From contig CAZSIT010000002.1 in assembly GCA_964607165.1 (NCBI GenBank), positions 46,063 to 110,062 on the forward strand: a stretch of DNA of 64,000 bases, in the 5' to 3' direction. Source of the DNA: an uncultured Ignavibacteria bacterium. Its GTDB lineage: Bacteria > Zixibacteria > MSB-5A5 > DSPP01. Below the pieces are notes generated by a model. It saw only the letters and a program-made list of their open reading frames with translations. It did not search any database and had not been told where the DNA came from. Positions 6,417 to 49,994 of the stretch are shown here, piece by piece. Position numbers and translations under genes: made by a program. Each line of letters begins with the position of its first letter. The first letter of the stretch is position 1.

Positions 6417-6893
6417 CTATGGTCCGCACCAGGGAGGAGCATTTAACCCCAAATAGGTCTTGTTCAGTTCCAAGACCACATCCGCGCTGGTCAAAATCCC
6501 ATCGCAGTTGACATCCGAAAAACAGGCGTCGCAGCTACCAAGTCCCAAATAAGTGCAGTTAAGCAGCAACACCACATCGGCGCTGGTGTAAATATCATCA
6601 AAGTTCATATCTCCTTTAAGCGCAGCACAGGTGGCCTGCCAAAAGCCGATGCCCAGGTTCAGGCCGCCGCCGCTTCCCGCTCCCGACACCGACTGGCCAA
6701 CCGTGTAGCCCAGTTTAAGCGGGCCGCCCGAGCCAAAGCTCGCGCCTCCGCCGTTGATGGAAATCCATTTGAGTTGTGGCAGGGCAAAAGCGGCTCCCGC
6801 CAGCCATACGGTCAGGAAAGCTACAAGAAGCGCAAAAAGGAACAGATGCTTCTTTCTACTTCCTATCAAAGTGGGAACACATTTAGTTGTCAT
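6417..6893 (-). CDS. small secreted protein B1: signal peptide, Gly-rich region, C-terminal Cys-containing dockerin-like double repeat
   Basis: 158 aa; hydrophobic N-terminus; 'DMNFDDIYTSADVVLLLNCTYLG' and 'DVNCDGILTSADVVLELNKTYLG' each fit the dockerin Ca-loop DxNxDGxxxxxD followed by hydrophobic helix; AGGAGG RBS; start overlaps upstream gene by 11 nt. Confidence 0.7.
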   Translation of the reverse strand: MTTKCVPTLIGSRKKHLFLFALLVAFLTVWLAGAAFALPQLKWISINGGGASFGSGGPLKLGYTVGQSVSGAGSGGGLNLGIGFWQATCAALKGDMNFDDIYTSADVVLLLNCTYLGLGSCDACFSDVNCDGILTSADVVLELNKTYLGLNAPPWCGP

Positions 6894-8298
6894 CTCCTCC
6901 TCCTGCGTTCTGGCCTTGTTTAGTCGCCTCTTCCAGCTTTTTCAGGCGGGCCTCTATTTCGGCCCGCTCGGCCCGTATCTGGGCCAGTTCTTCATCAAGG
7001 CGGGCCTGATTGGCGGCGATAGAGGCAGCGCGCTCCGCTTCCACATTGAACGCTCCCGATACCTGGGCATCTTCATTCGGATGTTGCGGGCTGGGGAAGG
7101 CAAAACCTCCATACGCCGTCGGGAAATAAAGAACGGTGATCTTAGCCAATCCAGCCGTTACTGCCCCGTTAAAAGGGACCTGGGACATAAGCAGAGTATA
7201 GGTAAAGGGACCCGCTGCCGGTATGGGCCGCGTGATTATTCTCACTTGGGTCTGGTCCGAAAACCCATCGGCGTCACCGGCATCCCAGCTCCAGGTTGCC
7301 ATTATGGGACCATTTTCAGTCAGTGCGCACGGTAAGGCATTGTTGGGGGCAGCGAGAGCAACGGAAAACTGCGCCTCACAGATTATTACGGCAAAGCCGG
7401 CCGCCGGGGCCACCAGCGTGATGCCAGCAAAAACTGGCCCAAATCCGCCTGGGACGGGAACACCTAACGGTCCAGCCGGACTGGCAACAAGCCCCGGTTC
7501 GTCAAACGATTCGATGGAAGAAATGGAACCTCCCGGAACCACCACGGCGCCGTTGCTGCTCGCATCGGCATCTATGCTGACGGTTACCGCATTGACGTCG
7601 TTTGTCATCGAAAGCAAAGAGCCGCCACCAGTCACCCCACCCTGCAAGCTGATTCCGGGGCTGCCGTTATCTTTTTTAAGCAGGAGGGTTCCTCCTGCAC
7701 CAATAACATCTCCGGCTAAGTCCACCGTTAAAACGTTACCGGCTGTATTATCCCTAAGCCAGATCTCTCCATAAAGCGTTCCACCCATCTCGACGTTCCG
7801 CTTTCCATCGGCACCAATGACATAAAGGTTGTTATTGGCTGCATCAGTCTTTATGGCTAGGGTTTCAGGAGCAAATGTGCTTCTGACCTCCAGACCGTTC
7901 GCCACGCGGCTATACGGTGCGCTGATTAACTGGGTGCGGGGACTTATGATGTTAAGATCCACTTCGACTTCCAAATAAACCGAGTCGTTGTTTATAAATA
8001 CATCTGTCGGTATGGGGTCAAGGATGGGGTCAACCGAACCCAATTGATGGGTAAACAAGCCGCCCGCATCGGGGGTAATGCTCTTGGTTTCATCCCAGAG
8101 AAGCCCTCCCGCCGCTGGCAGCGTGTAAAGACGGAAGATAAAAGTATGCGGCGAGCCACCCAGAGGATTGCCCAAAGCATCGGTCAGCTTCCCCTGAAAG
8201 TTGACCAGGTTGGGAACGGACGACACGTTCGCCGCCTGGGTGAATCCAACCAACAACGCAGCGGTCAAAACCACTGCCAAAAGAAAAATGCGTTTCAT
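6883..8298 (-). CDS. secreted Gly/Ala/Thr-rich protein A1 with conserved N-terminal 'NFQGKLTDxLGNPL' module and C-terminal coiled coil
   Basis: 471 aa; signal peptide; motif 'VNFQGKLTDALGNPL...FRLYTLPAAGG..LW' shared with A2 (9072..10478); C-terminal heptad-like 'LDEELAQIRAERAEIEARLKKLEE'; GGAGG RBS. Confidence 0.65.
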   Translation of the reverse strand: MKRIFLLAVVLTAALLVGFTQAANVSSVPNLVNFQGKLTDALGNPLGGSPHTFIFRLYTLPAAGGLLWDETKSITPDAGGLFTHQLGSVDPILDPIPTDVFINNDSVYLEVEVDLNIISPRTQLISAPYSRVANGLEVRSTFAPETLAIKTDAANNNLYVIGADGKRNVEMGGTLYGEIWLRDNTAGNVLTVDLAGDVIGAGGTLLLKKDNGSPGISLQGGVTGGGSLLSMTNDVNAVTVSIDADASSNGAVVVPGGSISSIESFDEPGLVASPAGPLGVPVPGGFGPVFAGITLVAPAAGFAVIICEAQFSVALAAPNNALPCALTENGPIMATWSWDAGDADGFSDQTQVRIITRPIPAAGPFTYTLLMSQVPFNGAVTAGLAKITVLYFPTAYGGFAFPSPQHPNEDAQVSGAFNVEAERAASIAANQARLDEELAQIRAERAEIEARLKKLEEATKQGQNAGGGDDN

Positions 8299-8530
8299 TG
8301 CTTATTCCTCCCGTTTTTTTGGGTTTTTTACTTGCTGTCCGCCTTTACGGCGGACAGCGTTTACGCTTGTGCCGTTAAATCAGAAGATTTGCTTTCCAGC
8401 GGTGCCTCCTTTCGTTGCCTGCCAATCCGAAAAAAGTCCTAAAAGCTATGTAACTACAAGTCACCCGGCAATCCCCCCACAGAACTGCCGTTTAAGAGCC
8501 ATATTCAAAATACCCCTTGGTCAGCCCTTA
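8299..8530 (-). promoter_or_regulatory. conserved ~230-nt leader/promoter region (copy 1) with perfect palindrome CTGTCCGCC-tttac-GGCGGACAG
   Basis: Near-identical to 10479..10715 over several blocks although downstream CDSs have diverged; palindrome at ~8337..8359. Confidence 0.55.
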
Positions 8531-8552
8531 GTCAAGCTTTTTCGGGGGCTGG

Positions 8553-8584
8553 AAAATAAAAAGGGGCGGGTTTTCACCCGCCCC
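8553..8584 (-). terminator. Rho-independent terminator after dockerin-like gene B2
   Basis: GGGGCGGG-ttttca-CCCGCCCC; minus strand followed by TTTTATTTTCC. Confidence 0.7.
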
Positions 8585-8606
8585 TTGGATGTTTTTGCGC
8601 TTGCCT

Positions 8607-9062
8607 TTACGGAGGTCCGCACCAGGGAGGAGCACTTAGCCCCAGAAAGGTCTTGTTCAGTTCCAAGACCACATCCGCACCGGTCAAAATATTGTCGCAG
8701 TTAACGTCGGCAAAGCAGACGTTGCAGTTGCCGAGTCCCAAAAAGGTGCAGTTAAGCAGCAACACCACGTCGGCGCCGGTGTAAATGGCGTCGTGGTTCA
8801 TATCCCCTTTACTGGAGCCGCAGGTTCCATACAAATATCCGGCATAGTTGTAGTAATTGGCGCTGTTTCCCACTCCAATCGGCGTGCTTTGAGCGGCGAT
8901 GGTCACCGGCTGCCGGCGGTTAGCCGAGCTCATCGCTCCCCCGGAGTTGGAAAAGGCCTGGCGCGGAATCTTATAGTTGGCGCTGGACATCTGGGCGGAG
9001 GTTTCTCCAGCTAACCAGCCGAACCCTAAAACTCCGCATAGAAAGATTAATACCTTTCGCAT
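8607..9062 (-). CDS. small secreted protein B2 (paralog of B1) with C-terminal Cys-containing dockerin-like double repeat
   Basis: 151 aa; 'DMNHDAIYTGADVVLLLNCTFLG...DVNCDNILTGADVVLELNKTFLG...PPWCGPP'; AGGAGG RBS 5 nt upstream of ATG. Confidence 0.7.
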   Translation of the reverse strand: MRKVLIFLCGVLGFGWLAGETSAQMSSANYKIPRQAFSNSGGAMSSANRRQPVTIAAQSTPIGVGNSANYYNYAGYLYGTCGSSKGDMNHDAIYTGADVVLLLNCTFLGLGNCNVCFADVNCDNILTGADVVLELNKTFLGLSAPPWCGPP

Positions 9063-9071
9063 TGTTTCCTC

Positions 9072-10478
9072 CTACTCTCTTGGCTGTCCAATTTGCGGCG
9101 TTTCCGGGCCAGGAGTGGCGACCGGCAGAGCAACAGGGACATAAAGGGCTGAAGCGATAGCACCGGGATACAAGTGGATTGCAAAGCCGCTCCCGGCATT
9201 ATCAGCGTTCAGATAAAAGGTAACCGCTCCAGGTCCTCCAACCGGAACCACCCGGACGAGCGAAAAACCGTGCGTGGAATTAAAGCCGCTGGTGGCATCG
9301 GCATCCTGATAATAGCGGTCGATATAAGTTCCGCCGCAGGTAGCACTGGAAGCGGGGGTAGTGCACAATCCCATATCAAAACTGACGGTTAAGGAAGCGA
9401 CACCAACGGCGTCCGCATCGTACCACCATTGGCCGGAGACGTTGAGCCATAGAACGCCAGCCGCCGGCACGGTCACGGTAAAAGAAGTGAGGGTGGCCGG
9501 TACGGGGCTTACGGTGAGGGGGGCAGGCAGCAGTACGGAACCGGCCGCCGCTTTTGCGTCGGGGCCGAGCTCAATGGCGCTGATGGCGTTCGCGGGCAGA
9601 ACGGCCGAAGCATTCCCAGCCACCCCGCCATCCAGAGTGATGGTGGTTGCACTGGCGCCGTTTGTCAGGTTGAGGGTGCCGCCACTACCGGTGGTGCCGC
9701 CATAGAGAGATGCCCCTGGGGTGCCACTCTCTTTGTTCAAATTTAAACTCCCTCCAACCGGGCAGGCAAGACAACCACCGTCGAGGGTGGCTGAAATGTT
9801 TCCCGCACCAGCTCCGTTCACGAAGTCCGCTCTCCCATTACCGAGCCCATTTGGGGTTAGAGCGATAACATTACCTGAGAATGAAAAATCCAAACCGAGC
9901 GTGCCATACATAACGTCCCCGGCCCTCTTAACGTAGTCGCCGCTGGTCAGCCCACCCAGCCGGTCGGCATTAATGGCATAGGCCACGCTGGTAATTTCCT
10001 GCCGGGGAGTCATTTCCAGCGCTTCCGTCGTGACCTTAACCCCCAGATAGCGGGGTATGCCATCAAACAGGTCGGCCGGGAAAGCCGGCCCCGTACCTAA
10101 CGGGACGTTGTAAAAGCCATCCGCATCCGGCGTTACAGGGGTGGATTGCGGCCCCCATAAAAGCAGCGCGCCTCCCCCCGGCCCGTCGTAGATTCTGAAT
10201 TCCAAGGTGGTCATCACGGTAATCGGCGCCCCCAATGTGTTGGTCAGTTTCCCCTGATAATTGATGGTGGCAGGCACCACCAAGCTGGCTCCCTGGCCTG
10301 TTCCGGCGGCAGGCGGCTGAATCACCACACCCGGCGGTAGGTCATTGACCCGCGAGGTGAGCGGCTGAACCACCCCACCCCGCGGTTGGTCCGCGGCCTG
10401 CAAACTGCCCCCTGCTGTCAGTAAAAAACTGAACGCTAAAACAGTTAGCGTTAAAGCTGGTAAAAAAGAACGTTTCAT
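9072..10478 (-). CDS. secreted Gly/Ala/Thr-rich protein A2 (paralog of A1) with N-terminal 'INYQGKLTNTLGAPI' module
   Basis: 468 aa; signal peptide; same N-terminal motif and compositional bias as A1; 9-nt gap to B2. Confidence 0.65.
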   Translation of the reverse strand: MKRSFLPALTLTVLAFSFLLTAGGSLQAADQPRGGVVQPLTSRVNDLPPGVVIQPPAAGTGQGASLVVPATINYQGKLTNTLGAPITVMTTLEFRIYDGPGGGALLLWGPQSTPVTPDADGFYNVPLGTGPAFPADLFDGIPRYLGVKVTTEALEMTPRQEITSVAYAINADRLGGLTSGDYVKRAGDVMYGTLGLDFSFSGNVIALTPNGLGNGRADFVNGAGAGNISATLDGGCLACPVGGSLNLNKESGTPGASLYGGTTGSGGTLNLTNGASATTITLDGGVAGNASAVLPANAISAIELGPDAKAAAGSVLLPAPLTVSPVPATLTSFTVTVPAAGVLWLNVSGQWWYDADAVGVASLTVSFDMGLCTTPASSATCGGTYIDRYYQDADATSGFNSTHGFSLVRVVPVGGPGAVTFYLNADNAGSGFAIHLYPGAIASALYVPVALPVATPGPETPQIGQPRE

Positions 10479-10715
10479 TGCTTACTCCTCCCGTTTTTTG
10501 GATTTTTTGATTTCCTGTCCGCCTTTACGGCGGACAGCGTTTACGTCTTTTGGTGATAAAATTAAAAGATTCGCTTCTCCAGCGCTTCCTCCTTTCGTTG
10601 CCTGCCAATCCGAAAAAAATCCTAAAAGCAAAGCTATGTAACTACAAGTCACCCGGCAATCCCCCCACAGAACTGCCGTTTAAAAGCCACTTAAAAAATA
10701 GGCAGGTTTCCTTTT
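10479..10715 (-). promoter_or_regulatory. conserved ~230-nt leader/promoter region (copy 2) with the same CTGTCCGCC-tttac-GGCGGACAG palindrome
   Basis: Blocks 'ttcctcctttcgttgcctgccaatccgaaaaaa' and 'ctatgtaactacaagtcacccggcaatccccccacagaactgccgtttaa' shared with copy 1. Confidence 0.55.
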
Positions 10716-10824
10716 ATTGTCAAGCAAAACTTTGACTTTTTTAACAAAAAAGGTTGCCAATTTCGGAGGAAACCCTATTTTATCCTGCCGGTTCTGATAA
10801 ACCCTGACGGAGGAGGGTAATAAG

Positions 10825-11280
10825 ATGAACAGAACGACTGATGTAATGGCAGCTTGGGGTCCAACGGTTTTGCGGCTGGGGGTAGGGGTGGTTTTTTTCG
10901 CCCATGGCGGCCAGCATATGTGGGGCTGGTACGATGGGCCGGGGCTTTCCAACTGGATGAACTTTTTGGCCGCCACCGGAACGCCCAAATTGCTGACCTT
11001 TCTGGCAGCTTTTTCCGAGTTTTTCGGCGGGGTGGGGCTCTTGCTCGGCCTTTTCACCCGCCTATCCGCCTTTGGAATCTTTTGCGTGATGCTGGTGGCG
11101 GTTTTCAAGGTTCATTTGGAAAGCGGGTTTTTTATGAACTGGGCGGTGGAAGCCGGAATCGGGCACGGGATTGAATTTTCGCTTACGCTTCTTTTCGCCG
11201 CTTTTTCGCTAATCTTGACCGGCTGCGGCCGTTTCGGGCTGGATAACCTGATTTGGAAGAAAAAGCCGATGGCCAATTAG
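10825..11280 (+). CDS. DoxX-family membrane protein
   Basis: 151 aa, four predicted TM helices, DoxX-like 'FFAHGGQHMWGWY' region; GGAGG RBS. Confidence 0.6.
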   Translation: MNRTTDVMAAWGPTVLRLGVGVVFFAHGGQHMWGWYDGPGLSNWMNFLAATGTPKLLTFLAAFSEFFGGVGLLLGLFTRLSAFGIFCVMLVAVFKVHLESGFFMNWAVEAGIGHGIEFSLTLLFAAFSLILTGCGRFGLDNLIWKKKPMAN

Positions 11281-11297
11281 CCGGTCGATAAATGTCA

Positions 11298-11328
11298 AAG
11301 GGGCGGGTTTTACCCGCCTTTTTCGCTT
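11298..11328 (+). terminator. Rho-independent terminator after DoxX gene
   Basis: GGGGCGGG-tttta-CCCGCC followed by TTTTTCGCTTT. Confidence 0.7.
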
Positions 11329-11420
11329 TGAGCTTTTCACGTTTGGATTTATATTCCCGCCTTAAAAAATGTTCAGAATCTGGAGTTTTTGTAGATAGCC
11401 GGTCACTAAAGGGAGGAATT

Positions 11421-14018
11421 ATGCGCGAATTTAAATTCGCCAGTCTTTTTCTTTTGACAACCTTTGCCGCCCTCTTTGCCCGCGGCCGCTGGGGAGACCA
11501 ATATTCCGACTTCCACTTCGCCCGCGACCGGGCCTTTGATTTAATCCACACCAGGCTGGAAATCTCCTTTAACGAAAAGGAGCGTTCGCTGGCCGGAAAG
11601 GTGACCCATACTTTCACTCCCCTTTTGCCGAATCAAAGATTTGTAGTTCTGGATGCCGTCGGTTTAAACATCGAAAAAATCTCGGATCCCACGGGCAATT
11701 CTTTGGCCTTTGACCAGTTTGACGGCAAGTTGAAAATAGATTTGGGGCTGCCCTTCCGGCCGCAGTTCGACACTTTCTTTGTGACCATCGACTACAACGG
11801 CAAGCCAAAGGAGGGAATTTATTTCGTTCAACCGGATTCAAGATACCCGCGCAAAAAGCATCAAATCTGGAGCCAGGGGGAAGACGAATACACCCGCTAC
11901 TGGATACCGATTTACGATTATCCGAATGACAAGGCTACTTCGGAGGTGCTGGTGACCGTGCCGGAAAAATACTTGGCGGTCTCCAACGGAGAGCTGGTTT
12001 CCGACACCCGCGCCAACGATATGCGCACTTTTCACTGGCGGGAAAACGTCCCCCACGTTACCTATCTGATTTCCCTTGTCGCCGGTGAACTGGAAATGTA
12101 TTCCGATACGGCCACCGTGTATGTGGATAACAAAATAAAAATCGTTCCAATGCTTTATTACCATCCTCCCGGCGAGAAGGAAAAATCGGTCCGCTCTTTC
12201 GGCAAAACCGGCAAGATGATTCGCTTCTTTTCGGAAAAAATTGGCGTGCCGTATCCCTACGAAAAGTATGCGCAGGCGGCGATTGACGAGTTTATGTGGG
12301 GCGGGATGGAAAACATCTCGGCCACCAGCCAGACCGAGCGCACGCTCCACGACCGGCTGGCGCATCAGGATTTTAAATCCGAGGGGCTGGTGGCGCATGA
12401 GCTGGCGCACCAATGGTGGGGGGATTTGCTCACCTGCCGGGACTGGTCGCACATCTGGCTGAACGAGGGGTTCGCCACCTACTTTGACGCTCTCTTTCAG
12501 GAATACGATTTAGGGTCGGATGAAATGCCGGTGGAAATGCGCGATAATCGGGACGGCTATTTGAATGAGGACAAAAGCTATCGCCGTCCCATCGTCACCA
12601 GCTATTACACCGACCCGTTCGATATGTTCGACCGGCACACCTATCCCAAGGGGGCCTGGGTTTTGCACATGCTGCGCACCTATCTCGGAGAAGAGTTCTG
12701 GTGGAAGGGAATCAACCATTACTGTCAAAAGCATTACGCCGACAACGTGGGAACATCCGACTTTGAGCGGGCGATGGAAGAAACGACCGGAAAAAACCTG
12801 GATTGGTTTTTCCAGCAGTGGGTCTATAAAGGCGGCTATCCGGAGTTTAAAATCCGAACCAGTTGGGACGATTCCGCCAAAGTGACCAAAATCAGTATTG
12901 AACAAATGCAGCCGACCGATTCGCTTACGCCGATTTTCCGGGTCAAACTGCCGGCGGTGGTCACCACTTCGAAAGAAGCCCTCCTTGATACGTTCTGGAT
13001 TGACCAGAAAGAAGAAGTTTTCTATATCGCCACTTCCGAGCGGCCCCAAATGGTGGAAATCGACCCGCGTTTGACGGTTCTGAAAACGGTTGACTTTGAG
13101 CGCTCAGAAGAAGCTCTGCGGTATCAATTGGTAAACAGCAAAGTTACCGAAAGCCGGCGGGAAGCGGCCGAGGCTTTGGCCAAGTTCAACTCGGATGAAA
13201 CCATCGAAGCTCTCTCAAACACCCTTAAATCCGAGCCTTTTTACGATGTTCGCCGACAGACCGCTTTGTCCCTGGGAGAAATTCGCGGAGAGAAAGCCAA
13301 AAAAGCCTTGTTTGTCGGTTTGGGGGATAAGGATTCACGCGTACGTCTGAACTGCGTGAAAGCTTTGGTTAAATTCAGAGACGATGCCGAGGTGGTGGCC
13401 AAACTCAAGCAGGTATTTTCCTCGGACACCAGCTACGCCACCGTGGCCGCCGTGATGACTACCATTGCCAAATTGGAACCGCCGGACGCCTTTGAATTTT
13501 TGCAAAAGGGGCTTTTGCGCTCTTCGCATAACGAAGTCATCTCCACTGCAACGCTGGCCGGATTGGCCGAGTTGAAAGACCCGCGTGCCGTTGATATTTT
13601 GATTGCCCACACGGCCTACGGCCGCCCCGAACCGATTCGCAACGCCGCCATCGCTGCTTTGGGAAAATTAGGCGGCATTTTGCGCGATGAAAAAGGAGTT
13701 TCCGCCTCCCGTATGCAAAAACAGATTCGCCAAACGTTAGTGGACTTACTTTCCGACTCAAAGTATACCAGCCGCCGCTCGGCTATTTCCGCCCTCGGCG
13801 CTTTCGGCGACCCGGAAACCATAAACGAACTAAAAAAAGTGGAAACCCGCGAAGTTTCCTACCAGTTGAAAAAAGGCGCCCGTCAGGCGATAGAATCCAT
13901 CCGCACGGCCAATAAGGAAGCGCTGACCCCGGACGAGCTCCGCGCCCGTTTGGAAGGGCTGGAAGATGATAACAAAGCCCTGCGTCAGCGGCTTGAGGCG
14001 TTGGAAAAGAAAAAGTAA
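11421..14018 (+). CDS. M1-family zinc aminopeptidase with C-terminal HEAT (PBS-lyase-like) repeats and terminal coiled coil
   Basis: 'GGMEN' exopeptidase motif and 'HELAHQWWGDLLTCRDW...WLNEGFATYF' HExxH-x18-E zinc site; repeated 'DxxVRxxAxxALGxxG' HEAT units at the C-terminus; annotated ORF start 11292 overlaps the terminator, so the GGAGG-preceded ATG at 11421 was chosen. Confidence 0.8.
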   Translation: MREFKFASLFLLTTFAALFARGRWGDQYSDFHFARDRAFDLIHTRLEISFNEKERSLAGKVTHTFTPLLPNQRFVVLDAVGLNIEKISDPTGNSLAFDQFDGKLKIDLGLPFRPQFDTFFVTIDYNGKPKEGIYFVQPDSRYPRKKHQIWSQGEDEYTRYWIPIYDYPNDKATSEVLVTVPEKYLAVSNGELVSDTRANDMRTFHWRENVPHVTYLISLVAGELEMYSDTATVYVDNKIKIVPMLYYHPPGEKEKSVRSFGKTGKMIRFFSEKIGVPYPYEKYAQAAIDEFMWGGMENISATSQTERTLHDRLAHQDFKSEGLVAHELAHQWWGDLLTCRDWSHIWLNEGFATYFDALFQEYDLGSDEMPVEMRDNRDGYLNEDKSYRRPIVTSYYTDPFDMFDRHTYPKGAWVLHMLRTYLGEEFWWKGINHYCQKHYADNVGTSDFERAMEETTGKNLDWFFQQWVYKGGYPEFKIRTSWDDSAKVTKISIEQMQPTDSLTPIFRVKLPAVVTTSKEALLDTFWIDQKEEVFYIATSERPQMVEIDPRLTVLKTVDFERSEEALRYQLVNSKVTESRREAAEALAKFNSDETIEALSNTLKSEPFYDVRRQTALSLGEIRGEKAKKALFVGLGDKDSRVRLNCVKALVKFRDDAEVVAKLKQVFSSDTSYATVAAVMTTIAKLEPPDAFEFLQKGLLRSSHNEVISTATLAGLAELKDPRAVDILIAHTAYGRPEPIRNAAIAALGKLGGILRDEKGVSASRMQKQIRQTLVDLLSDSKYTSRRSAISALGAFGDPETINELKKVETREVSYQLKKGARQAIESIRTANKEALTPDELRARLEGLEDDNKALRQRLEALEKKK

Positions 14019-14028
14019 GCCCCCTCAT

Positions 14029-14616
14029 ATGGTTGACAAGGATAATTCTTTATTGAAGTGGGACGAACTCATAAGTTTCCAGCTTCGAATTGCGGAAAGA
14101 TGGTTGAGACGGGGAAGAGAGACACAAGATTCGTTTGCTCAGTTCTTTTTTTTCTTTGCTGGGTTCAACGCCTTATACTTTTTGTGGCTAAAAATAGATG
14201 ACCTCAAAAACGAGGAAGGTAAATCAGCAAGAGAGGAAAAACAGATAGAAAATCTCTTGAAAAAGCTCGGCGAAGAAGCCGATGAAATTTTGACAGAACT
14301 TTCCACACATATCGATTTCTTCGCTAAACATACACCCATACAACGTATGGACAAAAGGACTGCTGAAAATCCTTACGAGGGAGATGAAGAAGAAGGGAAA
14401 AAAGCACTCCGAAAGCTTGCGAGAAATAGCACTCTCGTTGATCAGTTGGTAGGGCTTGGAAAAATAGTTTATCTTGTGAGGTCAAATTTATTTCATGGAA
14501 GTAAGGCTTTGGAGGGTGACGATAAAGATATTATTGAAAACAGTGTGCGACCATTAGAAATTTTCCTTGAAAGATCTATAAAAATGACGAAGCGTCAAAG
14601 TCCTTCGTATACGTGA
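14029..14616 (+). CDS. hypothetical protein with HEPN-like Rx4HG motif (AT-rich islet gene 1)
   Basis: 195 aa; 'VRSNLFHGSK' fits the HEPN R-x4-6-H motif; region visibly AT-richer than flanks; 3-nt gap to next gene. Confidence 0.35.
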   Translation: MVDKDNSLLKWDELISFQLRIAERWLRRGRETQDSFAQFFFFFAGFNALYFLWLKIDDLKNEEGKSAREEKQIENLLKKLGEEADEILTELSTHIDFFAKHTPIQRMDKRTAENPYEGDEEEGKKALRKLARNSTLVDQLVGLGKIVYLVRSNLFHGSKALEGDDKDIIENSVRPLEIFLERSIKMTKRQSPSYT

Positions 14617-14619
14617 AAA

Positions 14620-15075
14620 ATGCCCCTATATTTTGCCTACGGTTCAAACCTGGACACACAACGAATGATTTCAGCTAACGGCAGATGTCCAAACTCGGAA
14701 AAAATAGGTAGCGCTTGTCTTAAAGGTTACCGTTTGGTTTTTACTCGATATTCATCACTTTGGGGAGGGGGCGTCGCAGATGTGATTTCTGATCCCGAAA
14801 GCGAGGTTTGGGGAATAGTTTATGACGTGGCTGAAAAGGACTTTGAACGATTGGATTACTATGAAGGTTACCCCACTTTCTACGATCGATTTCAAGCTTC
14901 AATCAACACTGCCAACGGAGTGATTTCAAATGTTTGGGTTTATGCGGTGGTTGATAAAGGAGACTTTAGCCCACCTACTAAAAATTACTTGAAAATCATA
15001 CTGACCGCTGTTAAAGAAAATGAATTTCCAGAAGATTATCGATCTTTTCTCTCTACTATTAAAACTAAAGATTAG
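14620..15075 (+). CDS. gamma-glutamyl cyclotransferase (GGCT/AIG2-like) family protein (AT-rich islet gene 2)
   Basis: 151 aa; N-terminal 'YFAYGSNL' and 'YEGYP' motifs of the AIG2/GGCT fold. Confidence 0.6.
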   Translation: MPLYFAYGSNLDTQRMISANGRCPNSEKIGSACLKGYRLVFTRYSSLWGGGVADVISDPESEVWGIVYDVAEKDFERLDYYEGYPTFYDRFQASINTANGVISNVWVYAVVDKGDFSPPTKNYLKIILTAVKENEFPEDYRSFLSTIKTKD

Positions 15076-15081
15076 GCTAGC

Positions 15082-16038
15082 ATGATTAAAACGCTCGTTT
15101 TCGAGAACGGCTCTCTCCGCGAAGGGAAACTGGAGGAGCTCGAAAAACCTGGGGTCATCGGCTGGGTTGATTTGGAAAACCCGTCTGATGAAGAATTGGC
15201 ATCCGCTGCCAATCTGACTAAACTCGAGCCGAACGAGCTGAAGGACAACTTGGGCAAAGGGCAGGGGGCGATTACCAAAAACTATGAGCAATACTCTCTT
15301 TTGGTTTTCCGTTCCGCCTTAAAGGGTCAGCGGGAGACTTTCACCCAGCCTTTTGTAATCCTGGTCTCCAAGAAGAATAAGGATTTAATTACCATTCACC
15401 GTCACCCCTCCTCCAGCCTGGAACGGATTTACGCCTATCCCCAGCAAAGGCTAATTCCCCTTTTTTCCAAAGGGCCGACGATGCTGCTTTATGTCCTTTT
15501 GGGGGAGTTCATCGAAAGCTACCGCACTGCCTTGACCGCCGTTGAAGATGTGGTCGAAGAGGTGGAAGAAGCGGTAATAAGTGGCAGCTCCCGGGAAACG
15601 GTCTTAAAACAGGTTCTGGGACTGAAAAAAGCTTTGGTTTTCTACCGCAAAGATTTATCGGCCAATCGCGAAGTGGTTTCCTCAATTGAAAAAGAATACG
15701 CCGACCATCTGGATAAAAGTTTATTGCCCAAGTTTCGATTGCATTATGCCGATTTGTCCTCGCTGGTCGATAGCGTTTCGATTTACAACGATATTTTATC
15801 GACGGCAACCGAAGTGCATCTTTCTATCGTTTCCAATAATCTCAATTTAACAATGAAAAAAATGACTTCGTGGGGAGCGATTATTTTAGTCCCCTCATTG
15901 ATTGCGGGAATTTACGGAATGAATTTCGTTCACCTTCCTCTTTCCGGGATTAAAGGCGGCTTTTGGATTTTACTTGCCCTGATGGCCGCCTCGGTAGCCG
16001 GCTTGGTGCGTTATTTTAAAAAGCAGGATTGGCTGTAG
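15082..16038 (+). CDS. corA: CorA-family Mg2+/Co2+ transporter
   Basis: 318 aa; C-terminal two TM helices with 'YGMNF' signature. Confidence 0.8.
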   Translation: MIKTLVFENGSLREGKLEELEKPGVIGWVDLENPSDEELASAANLTKLEPNELKDNLGKGQGAITKNYEQYSLLVFRSALKGQRETFTQPFVILVSKKNKDLITIHRHPSSSLERIYAYPQQRLIPLFSKGPTMLLYVLLGEFIESYRTALTAVEDVVEEVEEAVISGSSRETVLKQVLGLKKALVFYRKDLSANREVVSSIEKEYADHLDKSLLPKFRLHYADLSSLVDSVSIYNDILSTATEVHLSIVSNNLNLTMKKMTSWGAIILVPSLIAGIYGMNFVHLPLSGIKGGFWILLALMAASVAGLVRYFKKQDWL

Positions 16039-16120
16039 GGGCACGTTGCCACGTGCCCTCATCGACGGCATTGACGCTGGCTCAAAATTTGCGGATATTT
16101 ACACTCGAGGAATTTAGCGT

Positions 16121-16486
16121 ATGTACGAAATTTCGGTAACTACGGGTTTTGCGGCGTCCCATCATATAAAGGGATACGACGGCGAATGTGCCCGCGACCA
16201 CGGCCACAACTGGAAAACCGAAGTGGTGGTGGGCGTACCGAATTTGGACGCCGCCGGAATGGCGATAGATTTTAAAAAAGTAAAAAACATTCTCGAAGAA
16301 ATCACCGCCCCGTTAGACCATCGCAACTTGAACGATTTGCACCCTTTCACCGAGCAAAATCCAACTTCGGAAAACATCGCTGCCTGGATTTTTTCCGAAC
16401 TGGAAAAAAGATTGCCGGCCGGCGCCAAGCCGGTGCGCGTGCGGGTCTGGGAAACCGATAGATATTCGGTCACTTATTCCAAATGA
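16121..16486 (+). CDS. queD: 6-carboxy-5,6,7,8-tetrahydropterin synthase
   Basis: 121 aa; 'CARDHGHNW' Cx3-HGH zinc motif. Confidence 0.85.
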   Translation: MYEISVTTGFAASHHIKGYDGECARDHGHNWKTEVVVGVPNLDAAGMAIDFKKVKNILEEITAPLDHRNLNDLHPFTEQNPTSENIAAWIFSELEKRLPAGAKPVRVRVWETDRYSVTYSK

Positions 16487-17124
16487 GCTTAAAAGTCAAC
16501 GAAATCTACCATTCCATTCAGGGCGAATCCTCCTATGCCGGGCTGCCCTGCGTATTCGTCCGCCTGACCGGCTGCAACCTGCGCTGTGTTTGGTGCGATA
16601 CGGAATATGCCTTTTACGAAGGGGAATGGAAAAGCTTGGACCAGATTGTGGCCGAAGTGGCGCAATTCGGCTGCAACCTGGTCGAGCTGACCGGCGGCGA
16701 GCCGCTTTTGCAAAAAGAAAGCTTCGCTTTGATCGATAAGCTCATCGAAGCTGGCTTCACGGTTCTGATTGAAACCAGCGGCTCAATTCCCCTGGAAAAA
16801 TTGAATCCCGAAGCGATTAAGATAATGGATATTAAATGCCCCGGCAGCAAAATGGAGCATAAAAATCACTGGCCGAACGTCGATTATCTTACACCGAAAG
16901 ACGAAGTCAAGTTCGTACTGGCCGACCGGGCTGATTACGACTGGGCCGTTGATATAATGCGCAAGTATCGACTCGACAAGAAAGCGACCGTGCTTTTTTC
17001 AACCGTTTTCGATAAACTTGAATCGATGAAAGTGGTGGAATGGATTTTGCAGGACAAGCTCCCCGTCCGCTTTCAATTGCAAATGCATAAGTATATCTGG
17101 CATCCGGAAACGAAGGGCGTATGA
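16483..17124 (+). CDS. queE: 7-carboxy-7-deazaguanine synthase (radical SAM)
   Basis: 213 aa; 'CNLRCVWCDT' cluster; ATGA overlap with queD. Confidence 0.85.
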   Translation: MSLKVNEIYHSIQGESSYAGLPCVFVRLTGCNLRCVWCDTEYAFYEGEWKSLDQIVAEVAQFGCNLVELTGGEPLLQKESFALIDKLIEAGFTVLIETSGSIPLEKLNPEAIKIMDIKCPGSKMEHKNHWPNVDYLTPKDEVKFVLADRADYDWAVDIMRKYRLDKKATVLFSTVFDKLESMKVVEWILQDKLPVRFQLQMHKYIWHPETKGV

Positions 17125-17813
17125 CCAAACCGCTGGCAGTTGTCTTAATAAGTGGCGGAATGGATTCAGCCGTCGCCCTCGGAATAACTTTGAAAGAAGG
17201 TTTTGAAGTCGCCGCACTCCATCTGAACTACGGTCAGAGAACCCAAGCGCAGGAAAAAAAGGCTTTTCACGACATCTGCAATTACTACGGTATATCAAAA
17301 AAGTTGGCAGTATCGTTACCCTATTTTAGCCAGATTGGCGGTTCAAGTTTGACCGATGAGAAAGTCCCGGTTTCGACTTCAGGAATTGACCCGAATGTTA
17401 TTCCAACCTCGTATGTCCCTTTCCGCAACGCTCACGGATTATCGATTGCCACTTCCTGGGCAGAAGTTTTGGGCGCGTCCCGAATCGTTATCGGCGCGGT
17501 GGAAGAAGACAGCTCCGGGTATCCCGACTGTCGGGAGATTTTTTATAAAGCTTTTGAAAAAGCTATCGATTTGGGCACCAAACCGGAAACGAAAATTGAG
17601 ATTTCGACGCCCGTTATTCGCCTCTCCAAAACCGCCATCGTCCGCAAAGGAACCGAGCTCGGTGCGCCTTTCCATTTGACCTGGTCTTGTTATCAAAGCG
17701 AGGACGTAGCCTGCGGCATTTGCGACAGCTGCCGCTTGCGGTCAAAAGGTTTTGCCGAAGCCGGCGTTCTCGACCCCATCCTCTATCGACAGAAGGCCGA
17801 AATCTATGCGTGA
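17121..17813 (+). CDS. queC: 7-cyano-7-deazaguanine (preQ0) synthase
   Basis: 230 aa; PP-loop 'LISGGMDS'; C-terminal Cys cluster 'CGICDSC'. Confidence 0.85.
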   Translation: MTKPLAVVLISGGMDSAVALGITLKEGFEVAALHLNYGQRTQAQEKKAFHDICNYYGISKKLAVSLPYFSQIGGSSLTDEKVPVSTSGIDPNVIPTSYVPFRNAHGLSIATSWAEVLGASRIVIGAVEEDSSGYPDCREIFYKAFEKAIDLGTKPETKIEISTPVIRLSKTAIVRKGTELGAPFHLTWSCYQSEDVACGICDSCRLRSKGFAEAGVLDPILYRQKAEIYA

Positions 17814-18642
17814 TTTGCAAAACGAAAAAGACCATCGAAACATTCCCTTAAACCGCGTAGGAATAAAAAATCTGCGTTACCCAGTGGAAGTTTTAGACCA
17901 AAAAGCGGGCCGGCAAAAAACGGTGGCCAACATCAGTATGTTCGTCGATTTGCCCGGCAACCTGCGCGGGACGCACCTTTCCCGCTTTGTGGAGCTGGTG
18001 CACAAATATAAAGACGAAATCGGCATCACCAACCTGGCAGGCATACTTGAAGAAGTGAAAAAAACTTTCGGCTCCAAAGACGCCTACCTGGAGCTATCTT
18101 TCCCTTACTTTATCGAAAAACAGGCGCCGGTCAGCGGGGAAAAGGGGCTTTTGGAATACCGCTGTTTTTTTGCCGCCTACCTGGCCGAAATCTACCGCGC
18201 CACGGTGGGCGTTTCCGTGCCGGTGACCATTCTTTGCCCCTGCTCCAAGGAAATCGCTTCCGCGGGGGCGCACAACCAGCGAAGTTTGGTCGGCGTTTGG
18301 GTGGAGGCCTCCCGCTTTATTTGGTTCGAGGATTTAATTACCATCGTAGAGGAAAAAGCTTCTTCTGAATTGTATTCCCTCTTGAAAAGGCCGGATGAGA
18401 AATTCGTAACTGAAAAAGCGTATGCCAATCCCCGCTTCGTGGAAGATTTGGTGCGGGAAATCAGTTTGGGGCTCGAAGCGGACGAAGAAATTACCGGCTA
18501 CCGCGTAGAAGTGGAATCTCTGGAGTCCATCCACAATCACAACGCTTATGCCTTGGTCGAACGCGGCTCCGTTTTAGGCCCCGCTACGGCGGTTCAATTC
18601 TGGTCCGCCTTAGGCGGAGAAAAAATCTCGGCCGCGTTTTAA
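17806..18642 (+). CDS. folE2: GTP cyclohydrolase FolE2/MptA family
   Basis: 'NIPLNRVGIKNLRYPV' signature of type-2 GTP cyclohydrolase I; start chosen at ATG 17806 overlapping queC by 8 nt. Confidence 0.75.
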   Translation: MRDLQNEKDHRNIPLNRVGIKNLRYPVEVLDQKAGRQKTVANISMFVDLPGNLRGTHLSRFVELVHKYKDEIGITNLAGILEEVKKTFGSKDAYLELSFPYFIEKQAPVSGEKGLLEYRCFFAAYLAEIYRATVGVSVPVTILCPCSKEIASAGAHNQRSLVGVWVEASRFIWFEDLITIVEEKASSELYSLLKRPDEKFVTEKAYANPRFVEDLVREISLGLEADEEITGYRVEVESLESIHNHNAYALVERGSVLGPATAVQFWSALGGEKISAAF

Positions 18643-18766
18643 AATTATGTAGTAGAAGTTAGAGCAACGGGTAGCCCCGGAGCCCCCGCTCCGGGGTTGT
18701 GGCAAAAAATGAAAGCAAAAAAGTTATTCTAATTGACGACCAACTCTTATTTTTTGTGAACATCTG

Positions 18767-19123
18767 ATGCCCAAACAGGCGCCACGAATCAAAAGCAAAA
18801 CTTCGGCCAACACCGGCTTATTTGCCCAAATCTATCAGTTGGTCAATTCCCTTCCCAAAGGAAAAGTTACTACATACGGAACGATTGCCCGAGCCTTGGG
18901 CAATCCTCGCCTCTCCCGCCGGGTCGGCTTTGCTCTGGCTTCTTTACCGGATGGCTCCCCCGTCCCCTGGCACCGGGTAGTGGGGAAAAATGGCATTTCG
19001 CTTCCCAATCCATACGGAGCTATCCAAAAATCGCTTTTGACCAAAGAAAAAGTCCGCTTTGCCGAAAACGGTAAACCGTTGGAGAAATATTTATGGCAAT
19101 TTCGAGCGGGAAAAAAACAATAA
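18767..19123 (+). CDS. alkyltransferase-like protein (ATL; MGMT DNA-binding domain lacking the active-site Cys)
   Basis: 118 aa; 'YGTIARALGNP' HTH and 'PWHRVV' where methyltransferases have PCHRV. Confidence 0.7.
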   Translation: MPKQAPRIKSKTSANTGLFAQIYQLVNSLPKGKVTTYGTIARALGNPRLSRRVGFALASLPDGSPVPWHRVVGKNGISLPNPYGAIQKSLLTKEKVRFAENGKPLEKYLWQFRAGKKQ

Positions 19124-19166
19124 AAGCCAACTAAACTACAAACTGTTTCGTATGTCTAATGAGTAA

Positions 19167-20336
19167 ATGAAAAGAAGAGTCGCTTATATACTTTTAGCCA
19201 GTCTATTAGGCTACACGCACGCACAGGCCAGCGACTGCACCCAAACCTCCAAGGGGTTTATCCCGCTGAACGACTTGGGCATCGGAACCTATCAAGGTTT
19301 TCAGGGTGGACTGTATCCCAATGGTCTAAACGTGCCGCCCCAGGGCCATCTGAACCCCGGTTTCGATATGGCCATCCAGATAAAGCCGCGGGATACCTCC
19401 GGGCAGGTCGACCCAAATGGTAAATATGTTCTTGTTTCGATTGGGATGTCCAATTGCACGCAGGAATTTTCAACATTTATTCCGCTGGCCAATGCCGATA
19501 CCTTCCGAAATCCCAAACTAACGATTGTTGACGGGGCCCAGGGAGGGCAAACTGCAGCGATAATTTCCAACCCCGCAGCCACTTTTTGGACGGTGGTTGA
19601 CCAACGCTTGGCCAATGCCGGGGTTACCCCAAAACAGGTGCAGATTGCCTGGTTGAAGGAAGCCAACGCCGGGCCGACCGGCCCCTTTTTACCGCATACG
19701 GAAACGCTGAAGGTTCAGCTGGGGAGAATCTGCCGGATTTTGAAGGATCGTTATCCCAACATCAAAATTTGCTATCTCGCTTCGCGGATTTACGCTGGCT
19801 ACGCTTCCACCGCCCTAAACCCGGAGCCCTATGCCTACGAGTCCGGTTTTGCAGTCAAATGGCTGATTGAACAACAGATTGACGGCGATTCGGCCTTGAA
19901 CTTCGACTCTGCCCAAAGCCCGGTGGAATCTCCTTATCTGGCCTGGGGGCCTTATTTGTGGGCGGATGGGTTGGCGCCAAGAAGCGATGGCTTAATCTGG
20001 GTATGCTCCGATTTTCAAACCGATGGAACCCATCCCGCCACTACGGGACGGGAAAAAGTGGCCAATATGCTTTTGAATTTTTTCAAAAGCGACCCGGCTG
20101 CTCAAGTTTGGTATCTCAAACAGCCCAAAGGACGGGGAGATTTAAACGGCGACGGCCTGCTTTCCGGCGCCGATGTGGTTTTGCTGTTGAATTTGACTTT
20201 CCTCGGCCTGCAGGCTCCCACCGGCGGACTGTTCGCTGTTGACTTGAACTGTTCCGGCTTCCCCGACTCACCGGACGTGGTAATACTTCTGAACGCCGCT
20301 TTTCTGGGAGACCCTCTGCCGGCACCTTGTAATTAA
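19167..20336 (+). CDS. secreted SGNH/GDSL-like hydrolase with C-terminal Cys-containing dockerin-like double repeat
   Basis: 389 aa; signal peptide; 'DGTHP' resembling SGNH block V; C-terminus 'GDLNGDGLLSGADVVLLLNLTFLG...VDLNCSGFPDSPDVVILLNAAFLG...PCN'. Confidence 0.55.
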   Translation: MKRRVAYILLASLLGYTHAQASDCTQTSKGFIPLNDLGIGTYQGFQGGLYPNGLNVPPQGHLNPGFDMAIQIKPRDTSGQVDPNGKYVLVSIGMSNCTQEFSTFIPLANADTFRNPKLTIVDGAQGGQTAAIISNPAATFWTVVDQRLANAGVTPKQVQIAWLKEANAGPTGPFLPHTETLKVQLGRICRILKDRYPNIKICYLASRIYAGYASTALNPEPYAYESGFAVKWLIEQQIDGDSALNFDSAQSPVESPYLAWGPYLWADGLAPRSDGLIWVCSDFQTDGTHPATTGREKVANMLLNFFKSDPAAQVWYLKQPKGRGDLNGDGLLSGADVVLLLNLTFLGLQAPTGGLFAVDLNCSGFPDSPDVVILLNAAFLGDPLPAPCN

Positions 20337-32998: not shown

Positions 32999-34171
32999 AT
33001 GAAATCTATATTCTTAAGAACCGAATTTAACCGTCGTTTCCCTGATCCTCTAAACAAGTCCGACCAAGATGAGCCCACAAGCATCGAGCACTATATTTTA
33101 CTTTGCAGAGCTGTAGATATACCGCCAGGTATTCCGACGGCTCCAAATCCAAGGGAACAAGACACAGATAAAACAATCTACCAGGAAGTCAAAAAAAGCC
33201 TTCTGAGCGAAGCCGATCCTACTTTTCATCTTAAGAACAAGGGGATTACAATTATCGCTCACAAGGTGGACTATAGCAACCATAAAGATGGTTTAGAAGT
33301 TTTCTTCAATGAAGACGATGGTATAGTCGATGGTGCCCACACCTATACAATCATAGTCGACAACAAGGATGAGTGCCCGCACAATCAATTTGTTAAACTG
33401 GAAATATTGACAGCCATTCCGAGGTCCTTTGTCGAACCCATTGCGCAGGGTCTAAATACTGCTGTGCAGGTACAAACTATGAGTCTGGCCAATCTTGGCA
33501 AAAGGTTCGAATGGATCAAAGAAATCTTGAATAAAACACCATACGCTTCAGAAATTGCCTACAAAGAAAACGAGGACGGTGAATTTACCATTAGAGATAT
33601 CATCAGCTTAATGACTCTTTTTAATATTGAGTCATATCCTGATGGTTCTACCCATCCTAAGGTTGCTTATGTTAGCAAAGCGAAAGCATTGGAAGATTAT
33701 TTAAAAAGCCAAAATTCATTTGAAAAATTGTCGCTGATACTAAAGGACATCTTAGAACTTCATGATTATGTCCATTTAAAAGGACGGGGGCTCTATAACG
33801 AAAAATATAAAGGGAAAGGTGGAAGGTTGGCATTCTACCAAACTCGGAAGAAAGGATATAGGCTCGTATTCACAAGAAAGGAAACACCAAGCATGCTGTA
33901 TGACGGTGCACTTTATCCCATTTTGGGTGCATTCAGATACCTCGTGGGACAAAAACCCGGCAACGGCCATTTTTCTTGGAAGGTCGGCTCTTTTGAGGAG
34001 GTCAAAAAAATATTTGACAAGGTTGGAGCTGACATGATTAACTCAACTAAAGGCAAAAGCGATAGCACTGGCAGAAATCCAAATGCTATCGGCAAAGATG
34101 ATGGCCATTGGGAAAATCTGTACAAAACTGTTGCCCTTGCTTACTTTGAAAATAACAGAGCTAAAAACTAA
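32999..34171 (+). CDS. hypothetical 390-aa protein in AT-rich islet (possible abortive-infection/defence-type gene; no confident family)
   Basis: Low-GC gene flanked by high-GC core genes, own strong promoter and terminator; weak resemblance of 'GIVDGAHTYTI' to AIPR-type motifs is not sufficient for assignment. Confidence 0.3.
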   Translation: MKSIFLRTEFNRRFPDPLNKSDQDEPTSIEHYILLCRAVDIPPGIPTAPNPREQDTDKTIYQEVKKSLLSEADPTFHLKNKGITIIAHKVDYSNHKDGLEVFFNEDDGIVDGAHTYTIIVDNKDECPHNQFVKLEILTAIPRSFVEPIAQGLNTAVQVQTMSLANLGKRFEWIKEILNKTPYASEIAYKENEDGEFTIRDIISLMTLFNIESYPDGSTHPKVAYVSKAKALEDYLKSQNSFEKLSLILKDILELHDYVHLKGRGLYNEKYKGKGGRLAFYQTRKKGYRLVFTRKETPSMLYDGALYPILGAFRYLVGQKPGNGHFSWKVGSFEEVKKIFDKVGADMINSTKGKSDSTGRNPNAIGKDDGHWENLYKTVALAYFENNRAKN

Positions 34172-49517: not shown

Positions 49518-49994
49518 ATGCCACTTCTTCAAGCCGAGGCGGATGCTCTTCTTCAAATGACAAAAGAATTTGTGGATGATGACCCAATTGAATTCCATCG
49601 GAATCAGCCGATGAACGCCGACCGCTTACTTCGGTCCGTCGATAGGCGAGAAGAATTTATATTGGACATTGAACGTGGAAATCGTAAACGTATTAGATTA
49701 AAGTTTCAAACAAGAGCGCGAAAAGTAATTGTATTAGCTCGATTTGAATTAAGCGGTCCGCCCCACAAAAACCCGCCCAATTCACCATATAGGCCAGGAG
49801 AATGGCTTAGCGAAAGCCATTTACATTTATACAAAGAAGGTTTTGAAGATAGGATTGCCTATGAACTTGCTGACGTGCCAAGCTTAGGAATCTCAGAAGT
49901 CCTTGCCGATAATCCGGGAGTAGAATACTTAGAGCATTTCATGAAGTTCTGTGGAATAAAATCTTGGCCTCCTATTCAAATGGTTCTTTTATGA
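49518..49994 (+). CDS. hypothetical protein (AT-rich islet, gene 1 of 2)
   Basis: 158 aa; low-GC; no recognisable domain; ATGA overlap with next gene. Confidence 0.35.
   Translation: MPLLQAEADALLQMTKEFVDDDPIEFHRNQPMNADRLLRSVDRREEFILDIERGNRKRIRLKFQTRARKVIVLARFELSGPPHKNPPNSPYRPGEWLSESHLHLYKEGFEDRIAYELADVPSLGISEVLADNPGVEYLEHFMKFCGIKSWPPIQMVLL

Follow-up and report, generated by a model that had tools for sequence, protein, structure and literature searches.

A probably disulfide-braced, dockerin-like C-terminal module of secreted proteins from uncultured Zixibacteria-like bacteria, and its candidate cohesin partners

Dockerins belong to the best-studied plugs between proteins and are a common tool of synthetic biology, and the type A sorting domain of the type IX secretion system (T9SS), another C-terminal appendage of exported proteins, is a β-sandwich of about 70-100 amino acids that is cleaved off by the PorU sortase. 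In the Cloacimonadota a cellulosome-like system of 'Ca. Stygibacter' was inferred from standard InterPro dockerin and cohesin matches, with no cysteine pattern described (PMC8542988). This report deals with a 64-kb stretch of DNA from an uncultured bacterium (contig CAZSIT010000002.1; hereafter the window), in which four open reading frames (ORFs), among them an esterase-like hydrolase at 19167-20336, end in a cysteine-containing module of two short repeats. By fold and architecture this module is very probably a genuine but divergent type-I-like dockerin. The dockerin fold itself is known; what is new is the cysteine-braced variant, a very large and poorly annotated family in uncultured FCB-group bacteria. 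A literature search found no description of a disulfide-braced bacterial dockerin, nor relevant work on dockerins in Zixibacteria, Latescibacteria or Ignavibacteria.

The reading preferred here, to which a probability of roughly 60% is given as a whole, is that of a disulfide-braced dockerin which docks secreted cargo on cohesin-like domains of T9SS-anchored surface proteins. Two tandem calcium-binding loop-helix ('F-hand') repeats would fold into a three-helix dockerin braced by disulfides and located at the extreme C-terminus of Sec-exported cargo, including an esterase, FG-GAP and HYR adhesin-like repeat proteins, β-helix proteins, peptidases and small module-only proteins. The carriers would then dock, non-covalently and in a calcium-dependent manner, on cohesin-like domains of cell-surface proteins, some of which would be anchored via a T9SS C-terminal sorting domain, and the outcome would be a cellulosome-like display system not specialized for cellulose. 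Binding of a cohesin by the module, and a cohesin encoded elsewhere in this particular genome, are parts of this proposal that we infer.

The carriers and their modules are as follows (scores of a hidden Markov model, HMM, of the family are given in bits).

19167-20336, plus strand: esterase-like carrier of 389 amino acids, predicted to be secreted; predicted signal peptide at about residues 1-21, conserved catalytic domain at about 22-318, module at 321-389, then stop.
20127-20333, plus strand: module of the esterase-like carrier, 2-Cys class; repeat 1 at 20139-20207, repeat 2 at 20241-20309; family HMM 86.5 bits; Pfam Dockerin_1 13.3 bits, residues 324-376 aligned to profile positions 2-54 of 57.
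6417-6893, minus strand: carrier B1, 158 amino acids; consists solely of a signal peptide, some 50 residues rich in Gly and the module; an identical sequence is publicly available on the 223-kb NCBI contig that is the parent of the window.
6420-6617, minus strand: module of B1, 6-Cys class counting the upstream Cys in 'QATC'; repeat 1 at 6543-6611, repeat 2 at 6447-6515; ends in 'PPWCGP'; family HMM 106.8 bits.
8607-9062, minus strand: carrier B2, 151 amino acids, a paralog of B1 with the same build.
8610-8810, minus strand: module of B2, 6-Cys class; repeat 1 at 8736-8804, repeat 2 at 8640-8708; ends in 'PPWCGPP'; family HMM 105.5 bits.
62020-63987, minus strand: carrier with Ig-like repeats and a weak Pfam Big_9 match; ORF open to 63999.
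62023-62217, minus strand: module of the Ig-like carrier, 4-Cys class; repeat 1 at 62143-62211, repeat 2 at 62041-62106, with a loop one residue short; ends in 'PLPAC'; family HMM 80.8 bits.

All four ORFs, and the two repeats of approximately 23 residues with which each ends, are present where a first-pass annotation of the window had placed them. Its description of the carriers as four otherwise unrelated secreted proteins was overstated, since B1 and B2 are tandem paralogs. As to secretion, signal peptides are present or predicted in B1, B2 and the hydrolase, whereas the Ig-like ORF has none; its frame is open up to the window edge (63999), so that the N-terminus is cut off and secretion of this protein is putative.

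The module is about 66 amino acids long and consists of two repeats of the form D-x-N-x-D-G-x5-D-VVL-x-LN-x-x-FLG. When the 64 kb were scanned in six frames with a regular expression, eight loop-helix repeats were found in total, all within the four ORFs, and the family HMM scored the four tails at 81-107 bits with no other match in the window, which sets the module far beyond chance. An alignment of the four window modules has 21 invariant columns. That the resemblance might be fortuitous or due to low complexity, with no real domain behind it, could draw on the window Pfam E-values of only about 0.1, but this idea is refuted by the HMM scores, by thousands of relatives and by a confident structural model that matches only dockerins, and is practically dismissed.

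Both repeats carry the hallmarks of a calcium loop followed by a helix. The ligand positions 1, 3, 5 and 12 are D/N/D/D in 81-101 of 101 distinct tails in either repeat, from which calcium binding by the module would be expected, and the helix consensus over the same tails is DVVL-x-LN-x-x-FLG. The calcium-loop pattern had been ascribed to every repeat in the window; seven of the eight fit it, the exception being the second repeat of the Ig-like protein ('DFDGNG-ASASD'), which is short by one residue. The surface-facing helix positions L17, N18, F21 and L22 are strongly conserved in both repeats and across very diverse cargo.

The assignment to dockerins is based on profiles as well as on a predicted structure. 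Pfam Dockerin_1 aligns nearly full length with three of the four window proteins at 13.2-13.7 bits (cutoff 22.9; E about 0.1) and gives no match in B2, and an NCBIfam scan of the four carriers gave no match. Among 55 full-length relatives, 16 match Dockerin_1 at E<=1e-3 (best 2.5e-9), and some relatives bear a precomputed PF00404 annotation. A search of the PDB with a profile of the four modules returned dockerins as all of its best eight matches (top 2Y3N_B, E=2.3e-4). The AlphaFold model of the 76-residue B1 tail, built with an 86-sequence alignment, has a mean predicted local distance difference test (pLDDT) of 87.5 and a predicted template modeling score of 0.76, with helices at 22-34, 41-44 and 54-66; its best 34 Foldseek matches in the PDB are all dockerins, with probabilities up to 1.0, target template modeling scores (TM-scores) up to 0.81 and a root-mean-square deviation of about 2 Å. 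The dockerin-like nature that had been proposed for the module is thus borne out by both profile and fold.

The cysteines occur in nested sets of two, four or six per module. The Cys at position 4 of loop 2 is found in 99 of the 101 tails, and a terminal Cys, 0-3 residues from the C-terminus, in all of them; the minimal class of two, to which the hydrolase belongs, has these two alone. The Cys of helix 1 ('LNC') and a linker Cys are both present in 85 tails and both absent from 14, with 2 discordant (p=4e-15), and a Cys just upstream of the module accompanies a second linker Cys in 45 tails, both are missing from 41 and 15 are discordant (p=2.5e-13). The total is even in 87 of 101 tails. The nested sets and the co-occurrence indicate that the module is braced by one to three intramolecular disulfides. 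In the likely pairing map, the core pair would join the loop-2 position-4 Cys to the one 0-3 residues from the C-terminus, the second would link helix 1 'LNC' to the linker, and the third the Cys just upstream of the module to the second linker Cys (putatively C48-C74, C31-C39 and C7-C42 in the numbering of the 76-residue B1 tail). Selection of the sequences accounts for part of the invariance of the core pair, as the profile used to retrieve them already includes these two cysteines; the joint presence or absence of the other pairs escapes this bias. Behaving as pairs, the cysteines agree with the disulfide-stabilized variant that had been suggested. The conserved motifs 'LNC' and CxxC, in turn, do not extend to all carriers, since the hydrolase module has two cysteines only, in 'DLNCSG' of loop 2 and the terminal 'PAPCN', and has neither motif.

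The terminal Cys could instead enter an intermolecular disulfide that links carriers covalently to a partner or to one another. It is invariant and stands on a tail of low model confidence that is probably exposed, and the cohesin-like domains described below are also cysteine-rich. The even counts in 87 of the tails argue otherwise, as does the minimal class, which pairs the terminal Cys with exactly one other invariant Cys (loop-2 position 4), as for an intramolecular bond; covalent cross-linking is regarded as very improbable.

The family extends far beyond the window. An exhaustive HMMER search of 1.84 billion cluster representatives retrieved 13,626 proteins at E<=1e-3 and 1,193 at E<=1e-10, counted as clusters at 50% identity; the module is thus not limited to the four proteins. 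Among the best 150 matches, 99 have a single module, which in 98 of the 99 ends within 5 residues of the C-terminus, almost always within 0-2. At 72 metagenome loci, gathered with a degenerate DNA pattern of the module, 92 of 95 carriers likewise have no more than 5 amino acids between module and stop, and as many as four are found together in about 14 kb. The same pattern has only four matches among the GTDB species-representative genomes, so the family appears to reside mainly in unbinned metagenome sequence. The cargo is mostly other than carbohydrate-active enzymes: the domains found among the 55 full-length relatives are FG-GAP (14/55) and HYR (7), and also NosD/β-helix, BACON_2, BNR, S8 and M23 peptidases and GSDH.

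Carriers turn over quickly. One metagenome locus (L082, 87% DNA identity) is syntenic with window positions 10461-19090 and keeps the MGMT-like gene, but in the region of the window that holds the hydrolase (18767-20336) the relative (L082:7686-9136) has an FG-GAP repeat protein on the opposite strand that ends in a 6-Cys module. Even close relatives thus differ in what fills the carrier slot.

The catalytic domain of the hydrolase has more than 7,900 homologs in several phyla at about 60% identity, the nearest named one being from candidate division Zixibacteria (75% identity), and the catalytic part gave no sequence match in Pfam, NCBIfam or the PDB, either as a single sequence or as a 25-sequence profile. 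Invariant GMSN, GAQGG and DGTHP motifs are compatible with SGNH blocks I, II and V, and two homologs bear the JGI label 'lysophospholipase L1-like esterase'; the designation 'SGNH-like' is compatible with these motifs and labels and stands without profile confirmation. The domain (window 19230-20120) is a candidate for a new family definition.

Its orthologs connect the module with type IX secretion. Of 120 listed orthologs, 28 have a T9SS type A sorting domain (PF18962) and 15 a dockerin-like module, others bearing FG-GAP or Ig domains; the T9SS-bearing ones occur in KSB1 and Ignavibacteria. The module occupies the position that the T9SS sorting domain has in hydrolase orthologs, and in the KSB1 ortholog P0182 the latter starts at residue 340, the same junction as the module start in the window hydrolase. 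The window itself encodes a T9SS protein with a lamin-tail domain (42035-43720; TIGR04183, 23.9 bits, cutoff 23), the end of whose gene is overlapped by one for a PorV/PorQ-like outer-membrane protein (43698-44504; 44.7 bits against a cutoff of 90). Since both C-terminal appendages coexist in one genome and interchange on the same cargo, it is argued that the module serves surface localization. An unannotated 511-residue ORF (40500-42035) lies directly upstream of the T9SS-protein gene.

These observations also bear on another explanation, in which the module would be an anchoring or export tag that acts independently of cohesins, read by a secretion or attachment machinery or binding lipopolysaccharide or glycan, as a stand-in for the T9SS domain. 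Its strictly C-terminal position, ending 0-3 residues past the last Cys, the T9SS type A domain at the same junction in KSB1 and Ignavibacteria orthologs, and the lack of a cohesin in the window and of a partner gene recurring beside carriers would all suit a tag. The fold and the calcium-ligand pattern are nevertheless those of a dockerin, and to our knowledge cohesin binding is the only established dockerin function; cohesin-like proteins exist alongside the module variant; and this genome has its own T9SS-tagged protein and PorV/PorQ-like gene, so that a substitute tag is not obviously needed. Neither is the module built like known sorting signals, which have a transmembrane helix with a basic tail or a β-sandwich. 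The T9SS type A sorting domain (TIGR04183/PF18962) is absent from the four carriers by NCBIfam and Pfam, libraries which detect true T9SS domains in the window protein at 42035-43720, in P0182 and in the HYR protein of L057, and the model is helical, not a β-sandwich. As regards signals of the sortase or exosortase type (LPXTG, PEP-CTERM, GlyGly-CTERM), the carriers have no hydrophobic C-terminal segment and stop 0-3 residues past the last Cys. The first-pass annotation had also considered a sorting tag processed by a dedicated peptidase, for which no positive support emerged: the module is a folded helical domain with predicted calcium loops, with neither a motif-plus-transmembrane tail nor a β-sandwich. 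A cohesin-independent tag is thus considered unlikely, although it is the alternative to be taken most seriously.

Candidate partners for the docking proposed here were found on other contigs. The window contains no cohesin, as had been noted at first pass, according to Pfam scans of about 53 ORFs (with a lenient threshold for unannotated ones), a clostridial cohesin profile (1OHZ_A-based) and a lineage-specific cohesin profile. On a 72-kb metagenome contig with three exact-pattern carriers (L057, Ga0184627_10000039), however, a protein encoded at L057:1-1623(-) matches Pfam Cohesin PF00963 at 38.9 bits (gathering threshold 24.1); it has a signal peptide and two repeats of about 215 residues, followed by a different dockerin-like segment ('GDLNLNG..FLYG..SDVNGDG'). 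The neighboring HYR-repeat protein (L057:1749-7688(-); about 1,970 residues), which ends in a T9SS type A domain (TIGR04183, 40.3 bits, cutoff 23), contains the cohesin-like domain once more, at residues 1478-1696, and a further copy lies on a second contig at L051:8412-9547(+), about 6 kb from a carrier, in a frame that is apparently interrupted. The exact module variant thus lies within 6-10 kb of cohesin-like domains on both contigs. These domains are rich in cysteine, and a PDB search with a profile of the four gave cohesins as all of the best six matches (top E=9.4e-4); by profile they qualify as divergent cohesins and are proposed as the partner class. Tetranucleotide composition of the two cohesin contigs correlates with that of the window at r=0.946 and 0.962, to be compared with 0.954-0.980 for pieces of the window against the rest, 0.950 for a syntenic relative and 0.50-0.58 for Ignavibacteria loci, and the metagenome that yielded the cohesin contigs harbors an organism closely related to that of the window. 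Candidates for the unseen cohesin-like partner that had been predicted thus exist on contigs with the same variant, and a counterpart in this genome is a prediction.

Several points weigh against the docking model. On the side of the partner, besides the negative cohesin scans of the window, the L057 cohesin match spans profile positions 3-59 of 139, that is, the N-terminal third only; the ties between the cohesin contigs and the window genome are limited to composition and metagenome co-occurrence; and clustering of 1,010 neighboring ORFs from the 72 loci showed no recurrent non-carrier family beside carriers except antisense shadow ORFs. On the side of the module, the window proteins are below the Pfam dockerin threshold (13 against 22.9 bits), the number of cysteines is odd in 14 of 101 tails, and model confidence is low (about 61) in the tail that bears the terminal Cys. 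Dockerin topology, moreover, should put the C-terminus nearer to loop 1 than to loop 2, so that the core pair would need the tail to be folded back along helix 3.

A dockerin-fold calcium domain might also have a role other than docking, either calcium-dependent stabilization or folding of exported proteins or dockerin-dockerin oligomerization. A review covers many organisms in which dockerin-like modules occur and no cohesin is detectable (Peer et al., 2009, as cited in PMC8542988), some relatives have 9-12 tandem modules, which is hard to square with simple docking, and the small module-only proteins B1 and B2 are conserved. Conservation of L17, N18, F21 and L22 in both repeats across diverse cargo suggests, on the contrary, a shared ligand, and cohesin-like domains co-occur with the variant; a non-docking role is judged improbable. 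The relatives with arrays form a tandem subfamily (P0017, P0018, P0022; 8-12 modules per protein), one member of which comes from a Parcubacteria genome and is annotated 'peptidoglycan-binding protein'. Their clasp differs from that of the window family, a 'CGD' just before loop 1 pairing with 'KC[PT]' at the end of the module.

Docking may also bear on the immediate neighborhood of B1 and B2, where each carrier has a secreted fibre-like protein directly upstream; these two are context and not carriers.

6883-8298, minus strand: A1, 471 amino acids, secreted and fibre-like, directly upstream of B1.
9072-10478, minus strand: A2, 468 amino acids, a paralog of A1, directly upstream of B2.

The order A2-B2-A1-B1 (6417-10478, all on the minus strand) represents a tandem duplication of a two-gene unit. 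The modules of B1 and B2 are 82% identical in protein and 79.5% in DNA, the regions upstream of the units (8291-8512 and 10471-10700) are 87% identical, and A1 and A2 share 27% identity (E=2e-19). Adjacency of A-like and B-like genes recurs in the syntenic relative L008/L009, with four carriers around the A-like gene, and in L010; the A family is rare (11 matches). A1 and A2 resemble trimeric fibres or adhesins, given weak matches to NCBIfam Bdello_MAT_N, the N-domain of the Bdellovibrio 'mosaic adhesive trimer', in both (A2 E=4e-8, below cutoff), the coiled-coil tail of A1, and the fold matches of a poor A-type model (jelly-roll, TNF/C1q, CBM35, Pgp3 and lambda tail fibre). It may be speculated that the B proteins tether the adjacent A fibres.

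Two further ideas on the A proteins were discarded. As hidden cohesins they found no backing, with no cohesin in the best 50 fold matches, but the model is poor (pLDDT 52); and an apparent fusion in P0080 between an A-type domain and the module proved to be similarity limited to the signal peptide and a short motif. The N-terminal halves of B1 and B2 (6620-6790 and 8811-8990) are rich in Gly and Ser and contain short motifs that recur: B2 has 'S.NY' three times, and in B1, as in several relatives (P0062, P0073, L010), 'GFW' directly precedes the module.

The remainder of the window, whose G+C content is 51%, consists mostly of housekeeping genes (menaquinone and queuosine synthesis, M1 peptidase, CHASE2 Ser/Thr kinase, GlmS, MnmE), and its proteins have their nearest named relatives in candidate division Zixibacteria. 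The DNA stems from a metagenome of sediment type (JGI 3300010391 / SRR6155509). Scattered among the housekeeping genes are defence-like ones (32999-34171, 39641-40495 and 49518-50767), namely an AIPR abortive-infection protein, a CAP12/Pycsar-type TIR effector domain protein, and DUF6978 followed by a DUF1828/DUF1829 gene.

Taken further, and only tentatively, the docking model could describe a disulfide-stapled display system for general use, built on cohesins and dockerins and coupled to type IX secretion, in Zixibacteria-like and related uncultured FCB bacteria. Giant T9SS-anchored HYR proteins and secreted two-cohesin adaptors would bear the divergent, cysteine-rich cohesin, and cargo proteins by the hundreds, exchanged rapidly (adhesin-like repeats, esterases, peptidases), would plug into it by way of the cysteine-braced dockerin. 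The trimeric fibres of A1 and A2 might be tethered by B1 and B2, and the whole would have nothing to do with cellulose breakdown and would largely escape standard annotation; this wider picture is doubtful. The family comprises at least 1,193 and up to 13,626 sequence clusters and is largely missed by current profiles, so the module offers an annotation handle on thousands of 'hypothetical' secreted proteins. If the docking model is true, cohesin-dockerin assembly extends from plant-cell-wall degradation in Firmicutes to the T9SS-linked surface organization of uncultured Gram-negative sediment bacteria, and a redox-stabilized docking pair would become available for engineering.

Four known systems are close enough for comparison. 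With the T9SS type A domain (TIGR04183/PF18962) the module shares its place at the extreme C-terminus of orthologs of the same catalytic domain, and surface attachment is presumed for both; it differs in being helical with calcium loops, and sequence and fold are dissimilar. The host of the Cloacimonadota system is likewise an FCB-superphylum member; its signal-peptide proteins with a dockerin at the C-terminus include peptidases, and it has a large cohesin protein that ends in a conserved C-terminal surface-attachment domain (PMC8542988). The cohesin-like domain reported here, in contrast, is about 215 residues long, cysteine-rich and matched in its N-terminal third only, and the link between dockerin and cohesin is by co-occurrence on contigs, not within one assembled genome.

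Closer in sequence are the 'GD(A/V)NGDG...(Y)LINY(I/L)F.GGPAP...C' modules of Ignavibacteria-like and other metagenome-assembled genomes, annotated PF00404, which have the same architecture and both core cysteines ('NC' and 'PAPC'). Modules of this kind ('YLINY(I/L)F...GGPAPC') occur on orthologs of the window hydrolase and in the GTDB loci L004-L006. The window family has the helix VVLLLNCVFLG in place of YLINYLF, whereas the latter type reaches the Pfam threshold more readily and no helix-1/linker or upstream/linker Cys pairs were seen in it.

From the type I dockerins of clostridial and ruminococcal cellulosomes (PF00404; 1OHZ_B, 6KGF_D, 4FL4, 2MTE) the window family is set apart by an invariant loop-2 position-4 Cys and C-terminal Cys with up to two more covarying pairs, by very hydrophobic and conserved helices ('DVVLxLNxxFLG') at which the classical recognition residues are species-variable, and by a module that ends 0-3 residues from the C-terminus of cargo that is mostly not carbohydrate-active enzymes; its window copies are below the Pfam threshold, and its hosts are uncultured Zixibacteria-like Gram-negative lineages. 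Common to both are the two calcium loop-helix repeats of about 22 residues with D/N/D...D ligands, the three-helix fold (TM-score up to 0.81, deviation about 2 Å), the near-symmetrical halves and the usually C-terminal position on signal-peptide proteins.

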